A DNA stretch of 64,000 bases from Candidatus Hydrogenedentes bacterium ADurb.Bin170 (GTDB lineage: Bacteria; Hydrogenedentota; Hydrogenedentia; Hydrogenedentales; CAITNO01). The position numbers were made by a program, and so were the translations under genes. The notes below the pieces were generated by a model. It was given only the letters and a program-made list of their open reading frames with translations. It was not told the DNA's origin and searched no databases. Location of the stretch: assembly GCA_002070275.1 (NCBI GenBank), contig MWCY01000011.1, forward strand, positions 19,847-83,846. The letters run 5' to 3'. This document shows positions 8,652 to 27,992 of this stretch, in pieces (the first letter of the stretch is position 1; each line of letters opens with the position of its first letter).

Positions 8652-9767
8652 TCACCGTTTAGGATCGCCTATCGGATGATCCTGAAGCGGCTGCAGCAGC
8701 GCACCGACGCCTGCACTGAGCTCTTTCGCTTCCGGCTGCCGAAGGACTTCCGCCGTCGATTCCGAAAGATCCCGCATCGGCAGGAGGGCGGAACCGACTG
8801 CGGCGCTGCTTTGGAACGACGAGCTGCCCGGCTTTTCCCCGGAGATCCCGGTTCCGAGCGGGCGGGGCCTTCCTGCGTCTTCCGCATCCAAATGCGCAAG
8901 CTGCGCTTTGATTTCAGTCTGCTGGGGAAAACGCTGCAAAAAGCAAAACATCCCGTTTCTCAACAGGGGCAGATCCTTTTCGTCTGTAAAAGCAGCCGCC
9001 ATCTGCTCCAGAAGCGCCCGGGCTTCGTCGGGGCGTTCCGCATACGTGACCAGACGGTCAAACCAGTGGCTTGCTTCCGTATATCGTTTCTGGCAGATCA
9101 GATTGGCGGTAATCCGGGAAAGGACGGCAGGATTGCCCGGATAAATGTGGACAAGAACAAAATACTCTTTCAGAGCGCCTTCCCAGTCCCCCTGTTTTTC
9201 AAGCTGTGCAGCGTGCTCCAGCTGGGGCGCAGTGGAAATGCCGGGATGATCCGGAAGGATCAGTTCCACCAGAATACGGGACAGCAGCGACACCACCAGA
9301 TGACCGTAAAGCGCCATGCCCGCCACCAGAAGCCCCAGCAGCGTAAAGATAAACAAGGCTATATCATCCTGAATCAACTGCTGCACCGTAATGATTTCGT
9401 AACCGAAAAAGAGAAGCACCATCCCGAGAACAACAAGCTGCCGGCGCACACTCCATTCCTGCTGCAGGTGAAAGCGGACATGGAGGGACCAGATGCCGAC
9501 TCCGAGAAAAAGAGCCAGAATCACCCCTCCGGTGACATAAAAGAAAGGTTGGGTGCTGTCCTGCAGCACATTCATGGAAAAAACATGGATCACTGCATCA
9601 CTTTCTGCGGGCTTCTCCGCCTTGCTATGACAGTAGCGTACTGCAAACACGGGGTAAACAGTCAACCCGGCACGGCTTTCCGTCGCTTTTGTGCCTGCAC
9701 CCGGAAAAATATCGATCCGCCCGGCACATCCCCGGGCTGTGATACCGATCAAAATTGAGCGCATATC
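8652..9767 (-). CDS. hypothetical polytopic membrane protein with TPR-like cytoplasmic region
   Basis: Several hydrophobic helices followed by TPR-like EGALKEYFVLVHIYPGNPAVL. Start chosen at MRSILIGI. Confidence 0.45.
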   Translation of the reverse strand, partial: DMRSILIGITARGCAGRIDIFPGAGTKATESRAGLTVYPVFAVRYCHSKAEKPAESDAVIHVFSMNVLQDSTQPFFYVTGGVILALFLGVGIWSLHVRFHLQQEWSVRRQLVVLGMVLLFFGYEIITVQQLIQDDIALFIFTLLGLLVAGMALYGHLVVSLLSRILVELILPDHPGISTAPQLEHAAQLEKQGDWEGALKEYFVLVHIYPGNPAVLSRITANLICQKRYTEASHWFDRLVTYAERPDEARALLEQMAAAFTDEKDLPLLRNGMFCFLQRFPQQTEIKAQLAHLDAEDAGRPRPLGTGISGEKPGSSSFQSSAAVGSALLPMRDLSESTAEVLRQPEAKELSAGVGALLQPLQDHPIGDPKR

Positions 9768-9877
9768 CCGTGAATTTGCTGTCGCAACGGGGTGCTTTAC
9801 TTGCATAAAAAAGAGAATAACGGTATTATTATTACAGAGATGAAGTCTGAAACCGAGATAGCTAAGGAGCAGCAACC

Positions 9878-10108
9878 ATGAAAAATAGTTCTTTTCTTAA
9901 GTTAGTATTACTGTGCTGCCTGCTGACGGCTGTCCTGTGGGTCAGCACCATGGATGAGGCGCAAGCGCAAACAGCCGATCAGAAACTGGCGCAGCAGAGC
10001 GGACTGGGTTCCAAAAAAATCGATGCAGACAAACTTCCGGGGAAATTGGAATATACCATTGCCATCGGCTCCGTAGTCGCCATGATAGCCGTCGTGAAGT
10101 TTGCCTGA
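9878..10108 (+). CDS. small (76 aa) protein with an N-terminal signal/TM and a C-terminal TM
   Basis: AAGGAG RBS 8 nt upstream. MKNSSFLKLVLLCCLLTAVLWVS ... IAIGSVVAMIAVVKFA. Confidence 0.45.
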   Translation: MKNSSFLKLVLLCCLLTAVLWVSTMDEAQAQTADQKLAQQSGLGSKKIDADKLPGKLEYTIAIGSVVAMIAVVKFA

Positions 10109-10247
10109 AGGGTTGGGATAGCCGCAAAGTGTATCGCAATTCGGTTGCGCAGGCAGATCGGAAACTCCGGTCATCGATGCCGGATCACTTTCAGTTTGGG
10201 AGTTCTGTTGATCAATAAGAGCAGCCGGGTCGCAGGGCCGCCCCGGA

Positions 10248-11573
10248 ATGAAACGAGGAATTCCTGTGTCCGAACGTATTTTGTGGCTGAATAGCAGCAC
10301 AGCATCCCATGAAAAGACAATACAGTGCCTGCATGCAGCATCATTTGAGCTGGACATAGCCAAAAGCCATGCTGAAGCGCTGATGCGTTTGCAGGAAGCC
10401 TCCTATCAGGTCTTTATCGCCCAGCAGCACTGTAACGGTCAGGATTGCCTTCCGCTCCTTCGGGAGGTCAGTGTACGGCGCCCAGAAACAGTATGCATAC
10501 TGTTGGGAGCTGCAGCCACTGAAGCGGACAACTGCCCGGGCTCCTTTGTCTTTCTATCCGGTGCCGGAGAGCCCGAACAGCTCCTCGCCGATGTACAGCA
10601 CGCCCTGAAGCAGGCGGGACTGACCCGATGTACCACGCTGGCAGAAGAAGTTGAAAAAACACGAAACGAGCTGCTGCGCACCAGGGAGCGGCTGAATAAT
10701 CTGCTGGACAGCACCATGGATGCTGTTTTCACACTGGGCACCACGCTGGAAATCACTTATGCCAACCGGGGCGCAGTACGCATGCTCGGCTACAACTTTA
10801 ATGAATTTGAAGGGATGGACTTTGAATTACTGCTCCGGGGCGCCGAAGATGAGTCTTCACTGCTCCTGACGCAGCTGGACGACGGCCCTATACAAAATTA
10901 CGAGACAGAGCTCCGCCATCAGGGCGGCCGCTGGGTACCCGTCAGTATTTCCCTGTCCAAAGCGTATGATCATCTGGGGAAGTTCGTATCCCTTCTTGCG
11001 ATCTGCAAAAACATTACACAGCAGAAACAGCTGGAACAGAAGCTGAAGGAAAAAATTGTCACCGACAGCCTCACCGGGCTGTATAACCAGCGTTATTTTT
11101 ATGAGCGTCTGGCGGCGGAAATAGAACGTGCACGGCGGCAGAATCACCCCCTGTCCCTGCTTCTTCTGGACGTGGACGCCTTCAAACAGTATAATGACAG
11201 TCGCGGGCATCTTGAAGGGGACCGGGTTCTCAAGGCAATCGGCGAGGTGATCCGCCAGTGCACCCGTGACTATGTGGACGTGGGCTGCCGTTACGGAGGC
11301 GATGAATTCACGGTGATCCTCCCGGAAACGGATCTGGTTCATGCGAAGAACATTGCCGAGCGCATACGGGTTTCCTTTGAAGCACGGGCTTTTGATCAAT
11401 GTACGCTCAGTATCGGACTGATGACGAACAATAAAACGGCGCCCGACAAAGGGGCGAGTGCGGAATCCTACATCCGTTTTGCGGATGAGATGATGTACGA
11501 AGCGAAGCGGTCGGGCGGAAACCGGGTTTGCATTTACGACGGCAGCCCAAACGTTGCAGGCCCTGATGCATGA
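10248..11573 (+). CDS. diguanylate cyclase with degenerate receiver-like N-domain and PAS domain (REC-PAS-GGDEF)
   Basis: RYGGDEF active site, an LTGLYNQRYF I-site region, and a PAS-like LLDSTMDAVFTL. Confidence 0.85.
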   Translation: MKRGIPVSERILWLNSSTASHEKTIQCLHAASFELDIAKSHAEALMRLQEASYQVFIAQQHCNGQDCLPLLREVSVRRPETVCILLGAAATEADNCPGSFVFLSGAGEPEQLLADVQHALKQAGLTRCTTLAEEVEKTRNELLRTRERLNNLLDSTMDAVFTLGTTLEITYANRGAVRMLGYNFNEFEGMDFELLLRGAEDESSLLLTQLDDGPIQNYETELRHQGGRWVPVSISLSKAYDHLGKFVSLLAICKNITQQKQLEQKLKEKIVTDSLTGLYNQRYFYERLAAEIERARRQNHPLSLLLLDVDAFKQYNDSRGHLEGDRVLKAIGEVIRQCTRDYVDVGCRYGGDEFTVILPETDLVHAKNIAERIRVSFEARAFDQCTLSIGLMTNNKTAPDKGASAESYIRFADEMMYEAKRSGGNRVCIYDGSPNVAGPDA

Positions 11574-15961: not shown

Positions 15962-16957
<996 letters not shown>

Positions 16958-17243: not shown

Positions 17244-17272
17244 GGACAAAACGGAATAACAGATTCTGCTTA

Positions 17273-17395
17273 CAGACCGGTCAGAAGCCCTACCAGTATA
17301 GCCATGAGGCTGTTGACGGGACCGTCACCTTTTTCTTCATAGCGCTGGAAGGCAACGTGGCCATCCATGTAGAGCACATTGGAACCGCCGGGCAC
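17273..17395 (-). pseudogene. C-terminal remnant (~41 codons) of a second H-X9-DG/DUF1559 paralog
   Basis: [41 protein letters not shown] aligns with the C-terminus of the 15962..16957 protein. No N-terminal pilin-like part lies upstream. Confidence 0.6.
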
Positions 17396-18329
17396 GGAGC
17401 TGGATCTTACGCAGAGTCCTGCAGAGCGTTTTGCGCCTTTGTTCACGATCACCTTTTTTGAAAAAGACACCTCAGTCACTCCGCCTATGCCCGGAAATGT
17501 TGTCGCAGAGATGGACGTGTCGGTTAATAAGGTAAACACGGGGTTATTATATCTGAGCCCGATCACTTATCAGTTTGAAATACCCATGTACCGTTATTCT
17601 TATACCCTTCCCACGCCCCTGAACTTGCCGGAAGGCTATATTCGTATCCGTGGCAAGCTGGCAGGGAGCGTGGATCCCTCCGATCCCACCAACCCGAATA
17701 AGGCACGTGCCTTTGTGCAGGTTTCCTCGCCCGACGGCAACCAGGACCTTCGCGAATATAACGGACAAGATATGCCCTATAAAGAAAGAATTGACCCTGC
17801 AAAACAATATGACGTAGCCATGTGCCTGCTTCCCGCTCTTGAAGAAGTGCCGGACATTACCGGTCTTGATTTTGCCGCTGCTGAAGCCGCTCTTCAGGCA
17901 GCGGGCTTTGTAGTAGGTACCGTCACCTATGATTACAGCGGTGCGGCTCCAGCAGGTCAGATAATCAATCAGGATCCTGCCGCCGGATTGGAACTGCCTG
18001 CCGGCAGCACAATCAATCTGGTGGTTGCAGCGGAGCCCTCAATCGTTCCCAATGTTGTCGGCAAGACTGAGGCAGAAGCCGCCGACCTCCTCGCAGCCGC
18101 CGGGCTGGTTGTCGGCAGTGTTTCTCAGGTGTACAGCGATACGGCCCCTGCAGGTCAGGTGCTTCAGCAGAGCGTAGCCCCGGGCTCTTCTGTTGCCCCC
18201 GGTACTGCCGTGAATCTGGTTCTTTCACGGGGTAAAGAAACTACCGTTCCTGCAGCCGGTGCGGTCGCCCTGGTTGCTCTGTCTGCCGCTCTGGCGGGCA
18301 TCGGTCTGGCACGGTCACGCCGCAAATAA
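17379..18329 (+). CDS. PASTA-domain repeat protein with C-terminal hydrophobic anchor + basic tail (start uncertain; TTG at 17379 or ATG at 17487)
   Basis: Two PASTA-like units (VPDITGLDFAAAEAALQAAGFVVGTVTY...; VPNVVGKTEAEAADLLAAAGLVVGSVSQ...). C-terminal tail AAGAVALVALSAALAGIGLARSRRK. Confidence 0.55.
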   Translation: MEPPGTELDLTQSPAERFAPLFTITFFEKDTSVTPPMPGNVVAEMDVSVNKVNTGLLYLSPITYQFEIPMYRYSYTLPTPLNLPEGYIRIRGKLAGSVDPSDPTNPNKARAFVQVSSPDGNQDLREYNGQDMPYKERIDPAKQYDVAMCLLPALEEVPDITGLDFAAAEAALQAAGFVVGTVTYDYSGAAPAGQIINQDPAAGLELPAGSTINLVVAAEPSIVPNVVGKTEAEAADLLAAAGLVVGSVSQVYSDTAPAGQVLQQSVAPGSSVAPGTAVNLVLSRGKETTVPAAGAVALVALSAALAGIGLARSRRK

Positions 18330-18703: not shown

Positions 18704-19297
18704 ATGGCATTGGAAGTCACCAAAACAGCACCTGATTTTACGGCAACAGCAGTCATGCCCGACAACACCTTCAATGAGAAGTTTCGGCTCGCCAATTACC
18801 TTGGCAAGTATGTGGTTCTTTTCTTCTATCCGCTGGACTTTACCTTTGTATGTCCCTCTGAAATCATCGCTTTTGATAAAAAGCTGAAGGAATTCAAAGA
18901 GCGGAACTGTGAAGTGATCGGCGTTTCCGTAGACTCCCATTACTCTCACTGGGCGTGGAAAAACACCCCGGTGGACAAAGGCGGTATCGGCAATATCCAG
19001 TATCCGCTGGTCTCCGATCTGACCAAGCAGATTGCCCGCGACTACGGCGTGCTCTTCGATGAGTCAGTAGCACTGCGCGGACTGTTCCTCATTGATAAAG
19101 AGGGCATCGTCCGGCACGCCCTGATCAACGACCTGCCTCTGGGCCGCAGCGTGGACGAAGCGATCCGGGTGCTGGATGCGCTGCAGTTCCATGAAGAAAA
19201 CGGCGAGGTCTGCCCCGCCAACTGGCGCAAAGGGGAAGAAGGCATGAAAGCCACGGCCGATGGCGTCGCCAGCTATCTCGGAAAGCACGCCAAATAA
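18704..19297 (+). CDS. 2-Cys peroxiredoxin (AhpC/Tsa family)
   Basis: AAGGAG RBS. Peroxidatic Cys motif FTFVCPSEI and resolving Cys GEVCPANW. Confidence 0.9.
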   Translation: MALEVTKTAPDFTATAVMPDNTFNEKFRLANYLGKYVVLFFYPLDFTFVCPSEIIAFDKKLKEFKERNCEVIGVSVDSHYSHWAWKNTPVDKGGIGNIQYPLVSDLTKQIARDYGVLFDESVALRGLFLIDKEGIVRHALINDLPLGRSVDEAIRVLDALQFHEENGEVCPANWRKGEEGMKATADGVASYLGKHAK

Positions 19298-19320
19298 AAA
19301 CGACACCTCCGGTTTTTCAA

Positions 19321-19350
19321 CGCCCGCTGTATCAATGGCGGGCGTTTTTT
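19321..19350. terminator. bidirectional rho-independent terminator between the convergent prx and activase genes
   Basis: cgcccgctgtatcaatggcgggcg plus TTTTTT; an A-run lies on the other side. Confidence 0.7.
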
Positions 19351-20152
19351 ATTGCCCGCCGGAGGAAAGCACGCTGTCTTTTGCAAAAAGAGCGGCACCG
19401 AGGGCACCTGCCAGCTGTGGCTGCCCGGGAAGGAGCAGCGGCTCACCCAGCAGTTCCTCCAGCGCATGCACAACACCGGGGTTCCGGGCAACACCGCCCG
19501 TCATAATGGTGGGCCCTGTCATGCGGACACGGGAAGCAAGCCCGAAAACGCGCGAAGCAATGGAGCGGCACAGCCCGGCAGCAATATTATTCACAGGCTG
19601 GTTCTGCGCCAGCCAGGAAATCACTTCGCTCTCGGCAAAAACAGTGCAGGTAGAGGAAATGGCAACAGGCGCATCCGCCGCCAGTGCACGGCCTCCGAAT
19701 TGATCCAGTTCTATTTCGAGGAGCCGTGCCATGACTTCCAGAAATCGGCCTGTACCGGCGGCGCATTTGTCGTTCATTTCAAAACGGAGCACCCTCCCGC
19801 CCTCATCCAGTGCAATGGCTTTCGAGTCCTGCCCGCCGATATCAATTACCGAGCGCGCCTCAGGGTAAAAGAAGCGGGCACCCCGGGCATGGCATGTAAT
19901 TTCCGTTACCGACCGTATGCGCCCTTCCACACGATCCCGCCCGTACCCGGTTGCAATGAGTCCGCGGCAGTATTGGGCGTGCAAACCGGCACTGTCCACC
20001 GCCTGATCCAGCGCACGGCGGAAAGAATCGGCCAGCACGCCGCTGGTCGGCAGTACCGCCTGAGACAGGATCTGATCTGCTTCGTCAAGAAGCACCACCT
20101 TGACAGCGGCACTGCCCACATCGACCCCGGCAAAAAAAGTATGTGTATTCAT
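19349..20152 (-). CDS. BadF/BadG/BcrA/BcrD-type ATPase (CoA-substrate-specific enzyme activase / HgdC-like)
   Basis: FAGVDVGSAAVKVV and IDIGGQDSKAIAL (ASKHA fold), with a Cys pair for a bridging [4Fe-4S]. Confidence 0.8.
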   Translation of the reverse strand: MNTHTFFAGVDVGSAAVKVVLLDEADQILSQAVLPTSGVLADSFRRALDQAVDSAGLHAQYCRGLIATGYGRDRVEGRIRSVTEITCHARGARFFYPEARSVIDIGGQDSKAIALDEGGRVLRFEMNDKCAAGTGRFLEVMARLLEIELDQFGGRALAADAPVAISSTCTVFAESEVISWLAQNQPVNNIAAGLCRSIASRVFGLASRVRMTGPTIMTGGVARNPGVVHALEELLGEPLLLPGQPQLAGALGAALFAKDSVLSSGGQ

Positions 20153-20153
20153 G

Positions 20154-21296
20154 TCATGCGGATCCCTGCAGCATTTCTGAAAATGCACTCACCCGGGTGC
20201 GCAGCTGCTCTGACGGTTCCTGATTTTGTTCCACGGAAAGCGTAATCGCGGGAATCCCCGCCTCTTCCAGGGCTTTCATCATGGGCACATAATCAAAAGC
20301 CATAGGGTCGCAGAACTGTGTCAGCAGAAAGATCACACCATCCGCACCTGCTGCACGCACCCGCGCCAACAGCGCATGCCCCGGATGCCAGCCCGTTCGG
20401 TGAAAAGCAGGGCAGGGATCACGGTGCAGGCTGCGCCGGGTAAGCACCTCCAGCGTACTGCCGTCTTCCGCATCGGCACTGTAAAAAGCGCGATGACTCA
20501 CACACAGATCATCGCCGACAATGTGGCAGCCTGCCTCTTCAATAAGATCGATGAAGGCGGGCGGACTGCACATGCTGCCCGCAACAAACACCTTCGGAAG
20601 GGCGGCGCTATCGTCTGAAGCCGCCTCCTCTGCGGATTCCACGGCGGAAAGAAGGGCGTGAAGCGCTGCCAGATGCGCTTCCCTGTCCATCAGCTGCGCC
20701 GCAAGAGCAATCTGCATAACCCGGGCTCCGGTGAGTACCTTCGGGTAACGTGCGCGGAGTGCGTACAGCTGCTCCATGGCATTGCGCTGCTGCTGAAAAA
20801 GTGCGAGCGCTTCTTCAATACGCGCCTCCGCAATGGGACCTGTTTTTTCTTCGAGCAGACGCCGCACACGGGCAAGCTCAGCACCGTAGTACTTTTCTGC
20901 GAGAGCCCCGTCCGTCTGCGTCGGCACCGACACAATCAGCACCTCCGCATCGCCCCGATGTGCGCGCCACAGATCTGCCACGTTCTGCATGGTATCGCAG
21001 GTGTGGGAAAACAGGACAATATCGAGAAAGGGCCATTCTTTTTTCAGAGCACGGTCAAGCACACTGCGGGCATAACTGCATGAGAAGGTCTGCAACAGCT
21101 CATCCGCGTGGTGTGTGTCGCCTATACGGCTGAAAACACGGACAGGCAGATACCCCGCCGCATGAAGCAGTTCGAGCGGTGCATAAGAGCAGAGATACCC
21201 TGCCACCGGCTTTCCTGAAGCGGCTGCTTCCATGGCTTTGGCATAGGGTTCTTTTTCTGCAAAAGAAAAAGGAGCCATCAGAGACTGGATATCCAT
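20154..21296 (-). CDS. 2-hydroxyacyl-CoA dehydratase D-component family protein (HgdB/YjiM/double-cubane-cluster-protein-like)
   Basis: GYLCSYAPLELLHAAGYLPVRV is typical of PF06050. Multiple conserved Cys. A 1-nt gap separates it from the activase start. Confidence 0.75.
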   Translation of the reverse strand: MDIQSLMAPFSFAEKEPYAKAMEAAASGKPVAGYLCSYAPLELLHAAGYLPVRVFSRIGDTHHADELLQTFSCSYARSVLDRALKKEWPFLDIVLFSHTCDTMQNVADLWRAHRGDAEVLIVSVPTQTDGALAEKYYGAELARVRRLLEEKTGPIAEARIEEALALFQQQRNAMEQLYALRARYPKVLTGARVMQIALAAQLMDREAHLAALHALLSAVESAEEAASDDSAALPKVFVAGSMCSPPAFIDLIEEAGCHIVGDDLCVSHRAFYSADAEDGSTLEVLTRRSLHRDPCPAFHRTGWHPGHALLARVRAAGADGVIFLLTQFCDPMAFDYVPMMKALEEAGIPAITLSVEQNQEPSEQLRTRVSAFSEMLQGSA

Positions 21297-21404
21297 AGAC
21301 CTGATCCCTTTCAGCGGTTTTTCCGCAGCGTGTTCCGCCTGCCTCTTTATTTTCCGGAACAGGGCGGGATATTGCAAATCGGAGGGCTTCGGAAGCGGGA
21401 AGGC

Positions 21405-22055
21405 TCAGCTCAAAAAGTGGGCAAGCAGCACTTTCATGCCGAGCGCAGCAAGCAGAAAGCCGCCGAATATCTGCACCTTCTGTCCGAAATGAAGTCCCAG
21501 CCGGCTGCCCAGCTTCATTCCTGTAAAAGTGAGGGATGCCGTAATGCAGCCGATGACAAACACGACGAAAAAGATATTCACCTGCATGACCGCCAGAGTC
21601 AGCCCCACCGCCAGAGCATCCAGACTGGTCGCTATGGACAGCCCGATCAGGCGGAGCCCCCGGGTCGGGTCGGTGGAGCAGGAAGCCAGGGGATCGGTAC
21701 CGTTTCTGTAATTGCTCCATGCCTCCCAGCTCATTTTTCCGCCCACGGCAAGCAGAATCAGAAAGATCACCCAGTGATCCCAGGGATGAATCCATTTTTC
21801 AACGGTCTGCCCGGCAAGCCATCCGATGAGAGGCATGAGCGCCTGAAACAAACCGAAATGAAAGGACAGTCTGAAAAACTGCCGCCTGTTTACCGTCACC
21901 AGAAGTGTACTGGCAACCATGGCAACAGCGAAGGCATCAATGGACAACCCCAGTCCGAGTATTCCGATTTCGAGCAATCCCAATTTAGAATAATCCCATA
22001 CCGGTGCTTCCAGGAAAAAACAGTCCTCGCCTGCTGTAAATTGAAAGTATACCAC
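21405..22055 (-). CDS. mntP: manganese efflux pump MntP (DUF204); start uncertain
   Basis: GLSIDAFAVAMVAS...LIGWLAGQ...ATSLDALAVGL, with the two conserved halves. Confidence 0.75.
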   Translation of the reverse strand: MVYFQFTAGEDCFFLEAPVWDYSKLGLLEIGILGLGLSIDAFAVAMVASTLLVTVNRRQFFRLSFHFGLFQALMPLIGWLAGQTVEKWIHPWDHWVIFLILLAVGGKMSWEAWSNYRNGTDPLASCSTDPTRGLRLIGLSIATSLDALAVGLTLAVMQVNIFFVVFVIGCITASLTFTGMKLGSRLGLHFGQKVQIFGGFLLAALGMKVLLAHFLS

Positions 22056-26223: not shown

Positions 26224-27069
26224 ATGGGTTTTATCAGCACCAGACTGGCACGGCTCCACGACAAAAAACAACGCCGCCATCCGGATTCAGGCATTCTGTC
26301 AGGGGCGGAGCCGCGTCACCTCGGTGCGCAGGATGCAGAGCGGGCGGTGCTGTTCATCCACGGCTTTATAGCCACGCCCAACAGTTTTGCCGACCTTCCG
26401 GACTATGTGGCGGCACGGGGCTGGCATGTCCGCGCCATGCTGCTGCCCGGGCATGGCACTTCCCCCTTCGACTTTCAGAAGGTCACCGGGCAGGAACTGG
26501 AAGATGCCGTGCTGCAGGAAGTGGAGCAATTGAAGCGGCGATATGCAACGGTTGTGTTTGTCGGCCATTCCATGGGGGGCGCTCTCGCAACCATTGCGGC
26601 GGCACAAAGCAGCCCGAAAGGACTGATTCTTGTTGCACCTTATTATTCAGTCACCCATCGGTGGTATTACATGATGCGGCCGGAGACCTGGGCACGCCTG
26701 GCTTCATCCGTCACGCCCTTTATCTGTGCGCCGGGCACGCGGCAGCCGATCCGGCAAACAACTGACAAAGGCAAGATCATTCTGTACAAATGGATCCCCC
26801 TGAAAAGCGTGCCCGTTGCCATGGCTCTGGCCGAAAAAGCACGGCATGAAGATACCTTGCGCAAAATAAACATGCCGACGCTGCTGATCCATTCAGTAAA
26901 TGACACTGTCACCGATCCGGCAGCATCGAAAAAGGTGTACGACGTCATCCCGTCCCCGGACAAAACCGCAGAATGGCTTACCCGCTCCAATCACGTCGTT
27001 TTCTGGGATTACGACCGGGATCAGGTGAAAGAATCGGTCAGCCGTTTTCTGTCCAGATGGGAATCATGA
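26224..27069 (+). CDS. alpha/beta hydrolase (lysophospholipase/S33-like), paralog 1
   Basis: GHSMGG nucleophile elbow. LFIHGF oxyanion region. An Asp/His pair later. Confidence 0.8.
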   Translation: MGFISTRLARLHDKKQRRHPDSGILSGAEPRHLGAQDAERAVLFIHGFIATPNSFADLPDYVAARGWHVRAMLLPGHGTSPFDFQKVTGQELEDAVLQEVEQLKRRYATVVFVGHSMGGALATIAAAQSSPKGLILVAPYYSVTHRWYYMMRPETWARLASSVTPFICAPGTRQPIRQTTDKGKIILYKWIPLKSVPVAMALAEKARHEDTLRKINMPTLLIHSVNDTVTDPAASKKVYDVIPSPDKTAEWLTRSNHVVFWDYDRDQVKESVSRFLSRWES

Positions 27070-27083
27070 AACAGGAGGTAAAA

Positions 27084-27992
27084 ATGGCCTTATTTCGCAT
27101 CGCCGTTATCCTTTTTATCCCCTTTCTTCTGATCGGCGCTCTTCTGTTCTGGAATAATTACGCTCCGAAAGAAGCGGAACGCTATGACCGCACCCTGCCC
27201 AGGAATCCCGACACCGGCATTCTTTCCGGCGCCGAAGCGCGCACCTGCGGCCCTGATGACACCCGGAAAGCCATTCTTTTTGTGCATGGCTTTATCGCAA
27301 CACCCGACTGCTTTTCCGATCTTCCGGAGTATGTGGCAGAACGGGGCTGGCATGTCCGCGCCATGCTCCTGCCCGGCCACGGCACCTCTCCCTTCGATTT
27401 TCAGAAGACAAGCCCCGCAGCGCTGGAGGAAGCGGTGCTGAAAGAACTCGATGCGCTGCAGCAGCGCTACGATACCGTCGTCATCCTCGGGCATTCCATG
27501 GGCGCCGCCCTTGCAACCATTGCCGCTGCACAGAAGCAGCCGGACGGGCTGATCCTGACAGCGCCCTACTATGCTGTTACGAAACAATGGTATTATATAT
27601 TGCGTCCGGAGACCTGGGCAGGACTTGTCTCTCCGATACTGCACTGGGTATACAGACCGCAAAACATGCAGCCTGTAAACCGTGCAGAGGCACGGGGCGA
27701 AATCCTTTCCTATAACTGGATCCCTTCGAAAGGAGCGCTCACTGCCATGGCAGTAGCGGGCAAAGCACGGGACGACACGATTTTGCAGAAGATCGCCATG
27801 CCGACCCTTCTGATTCATTCAAAAAATGACACCGTCGCGGATCCGGCCTATGCCGAAGCCGTATATAACCGTATTCCATCGAAAGATAAAACGCTCCACT
27901 GGCTGCTCCTTTCCGATCATATCCTGTTTTATGATTACGACAGGGAAACAGTCAAAATACAGATTGCCGCCTTTTTAAAAAAATGGGATTGA
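27084..27992 (+). CDS. alpha/beta hydrolase, paralog 2 with N-terminal TM anchor
   Basis: GHSMGA. It shares the block HGFIATP..DLP.YVA.RGWHVRAMLLPGHGTSPFDFQK with paralog 1. GGAGG RBS. Confidence 0.8.
   Translation: MALFRIAVILFIPFLLIGALLFWNNYAPKEAERYDRTLPRNPDTGILSGAEARTCGPDDTRKAILFVHGFIATPDCFSDLPEYVAERGWHVRAMLLPGHGTSPFDFQKTSPAALEEAVLKELDALQQRYDTVVILGHSMGAALATIAAAQKQPDGLILTAPYYAVTKQWYYILRPETWAGLVSPILHWVYRPQNMQPVNRAEARGEILSYNWIPSKGALTAMAVAGKARDDTILQKIAMPTLLIHSKNDTVADPAYAEAVYNRIPSKDKTLHWLLLSDHILFYDYDRETVKIQIAAFLKKWD

Follow-up and report, generated by a model that had tools for sequence, protein, structure and literature searches.

A beta-subunit and activase gene pair of Candidatus Hydrogenedentes that is probably one half of a split 2-hydroxyacyl-CoA-dehydratase-like enzyme

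A radical mechanism on a CoA thioester is established for both the 2-hydroxyacyl-CoA dehydratases (HAD) and the benzoyl-CoA reductases (BCR) (PMC7317905, PMC11971306). In BzdN, a subunit of the Bzd-type class I benzoyl-CoA reductase BzdNOPQ, an [8Fe-9S] double-cubane cluster is bound through Cys36, Cys73, Cys100, Cys263, Cys293 and Cys327 (Fuchs et al. 2025, PMC11971306); its distal subcluster is ringed by Arg53, Arg267, Arg290 and His330, and the role of the cluster is to transfer and store electrons, not to act as the active site (PMC11971306). The double-cubane cluster proteins (DCCPs), defined as cluster IV of the sequence similarity network of Jeoung et al. 2020 and covered by the NCBIfam model NF040772 (double_cubane), have as their hallmark the seven-cysteine motif CX19CX18-19CX29CX166-170CX32-34CX32C, which includes the non-ligand Cys94 (PMC7317905). 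The subject of this study is a pair of adjacent genes in a 64-kb stretch of contig MWCY01000011.1 of Candidatus Hydrogenedentes bacterium ADurb.Bin170 (hereafter, the window), of which one encodes a PF06050 protein and the other a HadI/HgdC-type activase, or archerase; a first-pass annotation, made from the sequence of the window, had read them as a single-subunit, DCCP-like system. The pair seems, however, only to resemble such a stand-alone system, with its catalytic subunit encoded elsewhere in the genome, and it is probably the beta-plus-activase half of a split three-component enzyme of the BCR/HAD radical family, akin to the 2-hydroxyacyl-CoA dehydratases.

Both genes are located on the minus strand (Table 1), where the open reading frame (ORF) 20154..21377 matched PF06050 over the whole profile (E 1.7e-78) and the ORF 19349..20188 matched PF01869 (E 1.8e-65). 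The most likely starts are the ATG codons at 21296 for the PF06050 gene, referred to below as the beta gene, and at 20152 for the activase gene, since the homologs are 379-381 amino acids (aa) long and NCBI annotates the identical protein at 380 aa. The junction reads TGA-C-ATG, such that the activase start lies one nucleotide past the beta stop codon, and the activase gene is translationally coupled to the beta gene. The first-pass annotation had described precisely this arrangement, and it was also accurate in reporting neither a second dehydratase subunit nor CoA-handling genes nearby; no second PF06050 or activase gene was found in the 64-kb window by tblastn and by hidden Markov models (HMMs) of the beta-type and alpha-type subunits, and no CoA ligase or CoA-transferase gene was found within about 6 kb of the pair. 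The identical beta protein recurs in metagenome-assembled genomes (MAGs) of Candidatus Hydrogenedentota and in metagenome assemblies, where the gene order is always MntP, beta, activase, peroxiredoxin.

Public annotations call the beta protein a 2-hydroxyacyl-CoA dehydratase family protein, an R-phenyllactate dehydratase beta subunit, or BcrC. When compared with the PDB sequences by phmmer, it scored 138 bits with HadC, 137 with BzdN and 125 with MbdN, but 81 with DCCP, and it is 25% identical to YjiM of E. coli. It failed every NCBIfam equivalog cut-off, scoring 157 bits with NF040772 (cut-off 350; YjiM, the positive control, scored 531, and the relatives at loci L001 and L009 scored 168 and 188), 133 with TIGR03190 (cut-off 453.8), 165 with TIGR02263 (cut-off 421), and 164.5 with NF052456 (cut-off 700). 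An AlphaFold2 model of the protein, with a predicted local distance difference test score of 92.9, was superposed on known structures with Foldseek, and the template modelling (TM) scores were 0.93 for HadC, 0.91 for BzdN, 0.86/0.78 for DCCP, and 0.71-0.79 for alpha subunits; chains B and D of the HadBC structure 3o3m gave 0.93/0.94 with a root-mean-square deviation of 1.9 Å. Roughly 40 extra residues of DCCP are absent from the beta protein. In neighbor-joining (NJ) trees, the family together with BzdN, HadC and MbdN stood apart from the DCCP group (DCCP 7yyl_C and P0096-98) in all 80 bootstrap replicates. Judged by sequence and by modeled fold, the beta protein belongs with the partner-type subunits HadC, BzdN and MbdN, and not with DCCP.

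The cysteines lead to the same comparison from another side. They are located at residues 36, 73, 100, 243, 257, 265, 295 and 329 of the beta protein, and the set Cys36/73/100/265/295/329 aligns with the ligand cysteines of both DCCP and BzdN. Their spacing, CX36CX26CX164CX29CX33C, is that of BzdN, and three of the four basic residues around the distal subcluster are also kept, namely Arg53, Arg269 and Arg292, with methionine where BzdN has His330. Among 42 homologs, each of the six ligand positions is either invariant or conserved to at least 90%, and the six cysteines are present in 82/82 tabulated family members and in 58 of 59 metagenomic beta-like proteins that adjoin an alpha gene. The position of DCCP Cys94 is a serine in the beta protein, and the seven-cysteine hallmark is thus lacking. 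A six-cysteine pattern of the BzdN kind without that hallmark makes a double cubane likely, but one of the BzdN type; most likely, the beta protein would hold an [8Fe-9S] double cubane through Cys36/73/100/265/295/329. The first-pass annotation had proposed that the conserved cysteines be aligned with those of DCCPs and of HgdAB-type dehydratases, and the alignment bears out its reading in part: the six ligands are kept, in the spacing of BzdN and not in the seven-cysteine motif of DCCP. What stood of the DCCP-like interpretation is the set of double-cubane cysteines and the dedicated archerase; membership in the DCCP family itself was rejected, since neither the HMM score nor the motif spacing, the phylogeny or the fold fits it and the seventh cysteine is missing.

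The activase is a predicted archerase by several features of its sequence. It scored 254 bits with the acyl-CoA dehydratase activase model TIGR00241 (cut-off 125.4), it contains the IDIGGQDSK motif noted in the first-pass annotation as well as the ASKHA phosphate motifs DVGS and DIGGQD, and its Cys130 and Cys169 fall, in the alignment with HadI, on conserved cysteines at the positions of the cluster-bridging ligands. Among the PDB sequences, it was most similar to HadI (4eht, 235 bits), followed by MbdQ (223) and HgdC (214), with DCCP-R (152) far behind.

The relatives of the pair were then informative as to its likely partner. Loci were searched with HMMs of the beta type (N), the activase (A) and the alpha type (O) in a genome scan with one genome per species, from which the best 80 loci were taken, and in 80 further loci from metagenomes. 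In nearly every one, the beta gene adjoins a second, divergent PF06050 gene, in the order N-A-O, N-O-A or N-O. Relatives at 33-38% identity (Desulfobacterota, Syntrophia, Spirochaetota, Actinomycetota) have N-O-A, A-N-O or N-O, and those at 39-51% (Hydrogenedentota, and MAGs labelled Nitrospirales) have N-A-O or N-O. A bare N-A pair, with nothing else of the three types within up to 10 kb, was found only in the nearest clade, of Hydrogenedentota, which includes the window and has 18 or more database clusters, 56-62% identical to the window beta. The divergent O protein is closest to HadB (280-323 bits), then to BcrB and BzdO (137-148 bits for BzdO); it has conserved cysteines in DLCSYAR, CCNNIC and SNRSC, which make up a three-cysteine site of the alpha type, and its family exceeds 5,000 proteins at E below 1e-30. 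A partner subunit in the operons of relatives, which the first-pass annotation had named as refuting its single-subunit reading, is thus present: relatives at 33-51% identity have a HadB-like alpha gene in the same operon, and for the bare-pair clade itself orphan alpha genes occur elsewhere, in one case apparently in the same MAG as the bare pair (see below).

The bare-pair clade was monophyletic in 78 of 80 NJ bootstraps and was joined with the partnered Hydrogenedentota lineages in 79, while the partnered lineages alone were monophyletic in only 2, so that the bare-pair clade is nested among them and derived. In the beta tree, its sister is locus L015. The clade retains 37 of the 40 most conserved columns of the family, with the ligand cysteines intact. 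As for the substrate, some partnered loci have genes for a 3-hydroxyacyl-CoA dehydrogenase and an enoyl-CoA hydratase as neighbors and others a gene of the URO-D family, which gave no consistent answer; the substrate is probably an acyl-CoA. As a separate observation on this large family (loci L006-L085 and L093-L172), which has a HadB-like alpha, a six-cysteine beta and usually a single HadI-like activase, the N-O operons often have no activase gene within 10 kb.

If the partner of the bare pair was once encoded beside it, the alpha gene should have either moved or disappeared. When metagenomes were scanned with the alpha profile, a beta gene was directly upstream in 72 of the 73 informative loci among the matches listed, with one orphan (L139), and this count first suggested that the alpha gene had been lost, orphans being too rare for a split system. 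That suggestion was set aside because the relevant orphan clade was missing from the matches listed, and was found later by a protein search and by accession numbers. The alpha protein HOC67436.1 is 487 accession numbers away from HOC67923.1, the beta protein of a bare pair of the L001 type, and neither an N nor an A gene lies within 10 kb of its gene, which is thus an orphan. One of the contigs with the orphan (NODE_625) and the bare-pair contig of L001 (NODE_1350) are both from assembly ERZ795028, and the tetranucleotide composition of the two loci correlates at r 0.94-0.96. The evidence that the two proteins share one MAG is strong but indirect.

In a tree of about 120 alpha proteins, HOC67436.1 belongs to a distinct clade of 13 clusters, the sister of which is the alpha of L015-type N-A-O operons, mirroring the beta tree. 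All five members of the clade that were looked up (P0381, P0320, P0316, P0294 and P0298) are orphans, without an N or activase gene in the locus, and all five keep the active-site cysteines. When orphans were matched to bare pairs by tetranucleotide composition, each orphan examined paired with a different bare-pair locus (Table 1). The ranks of divergence also agree, in that no beta of the clade is more divergent than that of the window (57-62% identity) and, among the orphan alphas, P0320, which pairs with the window, diverges most (76-80%). The mirrored clades, the pairing by composition and the agreement of ranks together indicate that the alpha gene, in sister species at any rate and probably also in the lineage of the window, was relocated and not lost.

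It is to be noted, as an aside, that the orphan alpha genes have settings of their own. In two orphan lineages (L176-L179 and L182), the gene follows same-strand ABC-transporter genes at a distance of about 130-230 nucleotides, and in L176-L179 these form a full four-gene cluster (ABC_tran, an unannotated protein, ABC_tran and ABC2_membrane_4). The L139 orphan (9765-10994, plus strand of that locus) is a rare alpha-type gene separate from the Hydrogenedentota orphan clade; it shares 51% identity with the alpha of L011, has only two close database relatives, and sits between a GFO/IDH-type oxidoreductase gene and an ORF of 544 aa.

From these elements, the following mechanism can be proposed. 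The activase would be a homodimer bridged by one [4Fe-4S] cluster and reduced by a ferredoxin or flavodoxin. In its ATP-bound form it would dock on the beta subunit, where ATP hydrolysis would drive a low-potential electron into the double cubane. The 380-aa protein would itself be non-catalytic, a beta subunit of the BzdN/HadC type whose double cubane stores or relays one or more electrons, which would pass onward to the three-cysteine [4Fe-4S] active site of a HadB-like alpha; the latter would bind the CoA thioester and activate it by a radical mechanism. In the Hydrogenedentota clade of the window, the alpha gene would have left the operon and now be located elsewhere in the genome.

Several points weigh against this interpretation. 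No alpha gene turned up for the species of the window itself: the HMM search of the 64-kb window gave none, and neither the accession blocks of the MAGs holding the window's protein nor the sample names led to an alpha-type accession among the matches listed. The correlation between the P0320 contig and the window (r 0.88) is lower than that within the window (0.94-0.96), with a GC content of 50.6% vs 55.3%. For the sister species, the accession-block and composition arguments, strong as they are, are indirect. Lastly, the domain identities, the cysteine pattern, the operons of relatives and the orphan alpha genes that co-occur with bare pairs in sister species are observations, and the type and content of the cluster, the assembly of alpha and beta into a heterodimer, the presence of an alpha gene in the window's own species and the substrate are inferred.

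These same negative searches, together with the lack of an alpha gene within 10 kb of any bare-pair locus, are what a stand-alone two-component system would predict. Here, a homodimeric beta would have the double cubane as its active site, as in DCCP/DCCP-R or YjiM/YjiL, and ATP-energised electrons would reduce a small substrate; it would be a secondary, independent DCCP-like origin from the subunit of a heterodimer. Such a system would accord with the tight coupling of the beta and activase genes, with the intact ligand cysteines and conserved core columns of the clade, with the position of the window beta as the longest branch of that clade, and with the view that homodimeric DCCPs are the ancestral state of the family (PMC11971306). 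We nonetheless consider it unlikely, as the sister species with the same gene pair keep a conserved orphan alpha gene, and both the composition and the divergence rank of P0320 match those of the window. The beta protein, moreover, falls short of the DCCP cut-off, lacks the seventh cysteine and the motif spacing as well as the roughly 40 extra residues of DCCP, and has a fold nearer to HadC and BzdN; the DCCP-like residues near the cluster, F298 and Q/S327, are also found in partnered sister operons. The last point concerns an argument for a stand-alone active site that was tried and dropped. The substitutions K298F, K327Q/S/N, P337V and E354S first seemed specific to the bare-pair clade, with DCCP residues at positions 298 and 327, but F298/S327/M332 were also present in the partnered sister operons L095 and L156.

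A true loss of the alpha in the lineage of the window, leaving a BzdN-type protein and its activase as a stand-alone ATP-driven reductase, appears distinctly unlikely. If true, it would amount to a second independent origin of a DCCP-like system, reversing the proposed path from homodimer to heterodimer, and the reductase might work with the neighboring stress module of PerR, ferritin and peroxiredoxin described below.

The pair might alternatively be a donor locus, which mainly supplies the activase, along with a paralogous electron-storage subunit, to alpha/beta operons that have none. Many N-O loci indeed have no activase within 10 kb (e.g., L017, L021, L107, L108, L110 and L115), and the MAG CAZBNU01 contains a bare pair (L009) as well as an N-O locus (L013) in which no activase is visible. 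However, a second beta-type locus is absent in three of the five bare-pair genomes, among the best 80 hits, and neither the conserved beta copy, translationally coupled to the activase, nor the matching clade of orphan alphas would be explained, which makes this proposal improbable. It is highly improbable that the pair is what is left of an operon now decaying after the loss of its catalytic subunit, a reading for which the missing alpha gene could be cited: neither ORF is disrupted, many assemblies contain the identical protein in the same synteny, and at least 18 clusters at 56-62% identity conserve the cysteines and 37 of the 40 core columns.

Table 1. Features of the gene pair and its surroundings in the window, and orphan alpha genes with their best-matching bare pairs by tetranucleotide composition.
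Feature	Position or locus	Strand	Remarks
Beta/BzdN-type HGD-D subunit	20154..21296	-	380 aa plus stop; PF06050 full-profile match
HadI/HgdC-type activase (archerase)	19349..20152	-	267 aa plus stop; PF01869 and TIGR00241
Weak sigma-70-like promoter candidate, TTGCAA-N17-GAAAAT	21349..21377	-	within the 108 nt that separate mntP from the beta gene
GC-rich hairpin	19319..19346	+	12 pairs, then TTTTATT on the plus strand; terminator scan
2-Cys peroxiredoxin	18704-19297	+	convergent with the pair
MntP-type manganese exporter	21405-22055	-	directly upstream of the pair, same strand
Orphan alpha P0381	L176		best-matching bare pair L001 / L089, r 0.94-0.95
Orphan alpha P0294	L187		best-matching bare pair L009, r 0.89
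Orphan alpha P0316	L182		best-matching bare pair L086, r 0.87
Orphan alpha P0320	L180		best-matching bare pair the window, r 0.88

The neighborhood of the pair encodes DUF6259, DUF1559 and PASTA proteins, the peroxiredoxin, MntP, RpsA, IlvB and two alpha/beta hydrolases. The first-pass annotation was right that the pair converges on the peroxiredoxin gene, but not in its claim of a bidirectional terminator shared by the two. The hairpin is the only one between the peroxiredoxin and activase stop codons, and it has a T-run on the plus strand only; on its minus-strand side, GAAAAACC comes next, without a T-run. It is thus a clear terminator for the peroxiredoxin gene, not demonstrably bidirectional.

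Upstream of the beta gene, the candidate sigma-70-like promoter aligns with an element, ATTTGTnTTT...TA(A/G)AAT, that is conserved upstream of the beta gene in relatives, as seen by eye in the upstream regions of eight bare-pair loci. The window element scores 8/12 and was not reported by the consensus scan. A shared Fur/PerR operator in this region was considered and rejected, the conserved pattern being that of a sigma-70-like promoter only. An Rfam scan of the whole window at gathering thresholds gave zero matches, and no yybP-ykoY manganese riboswitch was thus detected at mntP.

Beyond the bare pair, a convergent cluster of peroxide- and iron-stress genes is found repeatedly (the window, L001-L003, L007, L008 and L086-L091): peroxiredoxin in the window, peroxiredoxin and ferritin in L007 and L086, and ferritin in L001, L008 and L089. 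L007 and L091 add a PerR-like regulator of the Fur family (best NCBIfam hit PerR, at 110-113 bits, below the cut-off). The upstream flank of the bare pairs varies, with MntP, a methyltransferase, TrpRS or DnaK, and such stress genes were adjacent in none of about 70 partnered loci. The adjacency could reflect inherited synteny or the co-regulation of oxygen-sensitive proteins. Two unrelated features of the window may also be recorded. A short ORF at 17270-17420 (minus strand), the last 38 residues of which are 79% identical to the C-terminus of the neighboring prepilin-type/DUF1559 protein (15962-16957, minus strand), resembles a fragment of a truncated paralog and overlaps the start of a PASTA-domain ORF on the opposite strand. 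The two alpha/beta-hydrolase genes (26224-27069 and 26973-27992, both plus strand) are tandem paralogs, 58% identical over 272 residues, and the second ORF, as called mechanically, begins before the first has ended.

What is new in the split-enzyme interpretation is the combination of a double-cubane motif in a HAD-like beta subunit with the unlinking of the catalytic subunit throughout a clade; in other respects, the gene pair probably belongs to a known enzyme class as one of its ordinary components. Since a gene order resembling that of DCCP arose here by the splitting of an operon, a lone PF06050 gene beside an activase gene is, by its order alone, no ground for calling a DCCP system. A very large uncharacterised family conserves, in its beta subunits, the ligand set of the [8Fe-9S] cluster, which had previously been seen in DCCP and BzdN only. 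The presence of the six cysteines in 58 of 59 such subunits, together with the size of the alpha family, suggests that these clusters are widespread, and the double cubane may be common in dehydratase-like enzymes beyond the benzoyl-CoA reductases. The Hydrogenedentota clade, in which the electron-input module is separated from the catalytic subunit, is a possible test case for module exchange, for regulation, and for the redox role of the double cubane. Overall, the analysis corrects an attractive but probably wrong DCCP reading and points to a large reservoir of predicted [8Fe-9S] proteins.

Comparison with the known systems summarizes these relationships. DCCP/DCCP-R (PDB 6eno, 7yyl) and YjiM/YjiL resemble the pair in having one PF06050 gene directly followed by an archerase gene and in the six double-cubane ligands; they differ in the low similarity and the sub-threshold NF040772 score of the window protein, in Cys94, here serine, in the motif spacing, in the split found in every bootstrap, and in that the relatives of the window beta are heterodimer subunits. 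BzdN (PDB 8s02, PMC11971306) has the same cysteine spacing and distal-subcluster arginines, a similar fold, a sequence score of 137 bits and the same length of 380 aa, but its identity to the beta protein is only 27%, the TIGR03190 score is far below the cut-off, and His330 is replaced. The Bzd system also differs in that the partner in the relatives is HadB-like and not BzdO-like, in having the BzdP/BzdQ pair where a single activase gene is found here, and in that there are no aromatic-degradation genes near the pair. HadBC/HadI, the (R)-2-hydroxyisocaproyl-CoA dehydratase and its activator (PDB 3o3m, 4eht), provides the best match of the beta protein in sequence and fold (HadC), the most similar activase, likewise single and of the homodimer type (HadI), and the closest known protein to the alpha of the relatives (HadB). 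Unlike the beta protein, with six cysteines that predict [8Fe-9S], HadC binds a [4Fe-4S] cluster with an additional sulfur through three cysteines; furthermore, the equivalog cut-offs are failed widely, the alpha gene is unlinked here, and there is no CoA-transferase gene nearby. The system as reconstructed thus resembles HadBC/HadI in its working, with a beta subunit of the BzdN type, and does not pass the defining tests of any named equivalog family.

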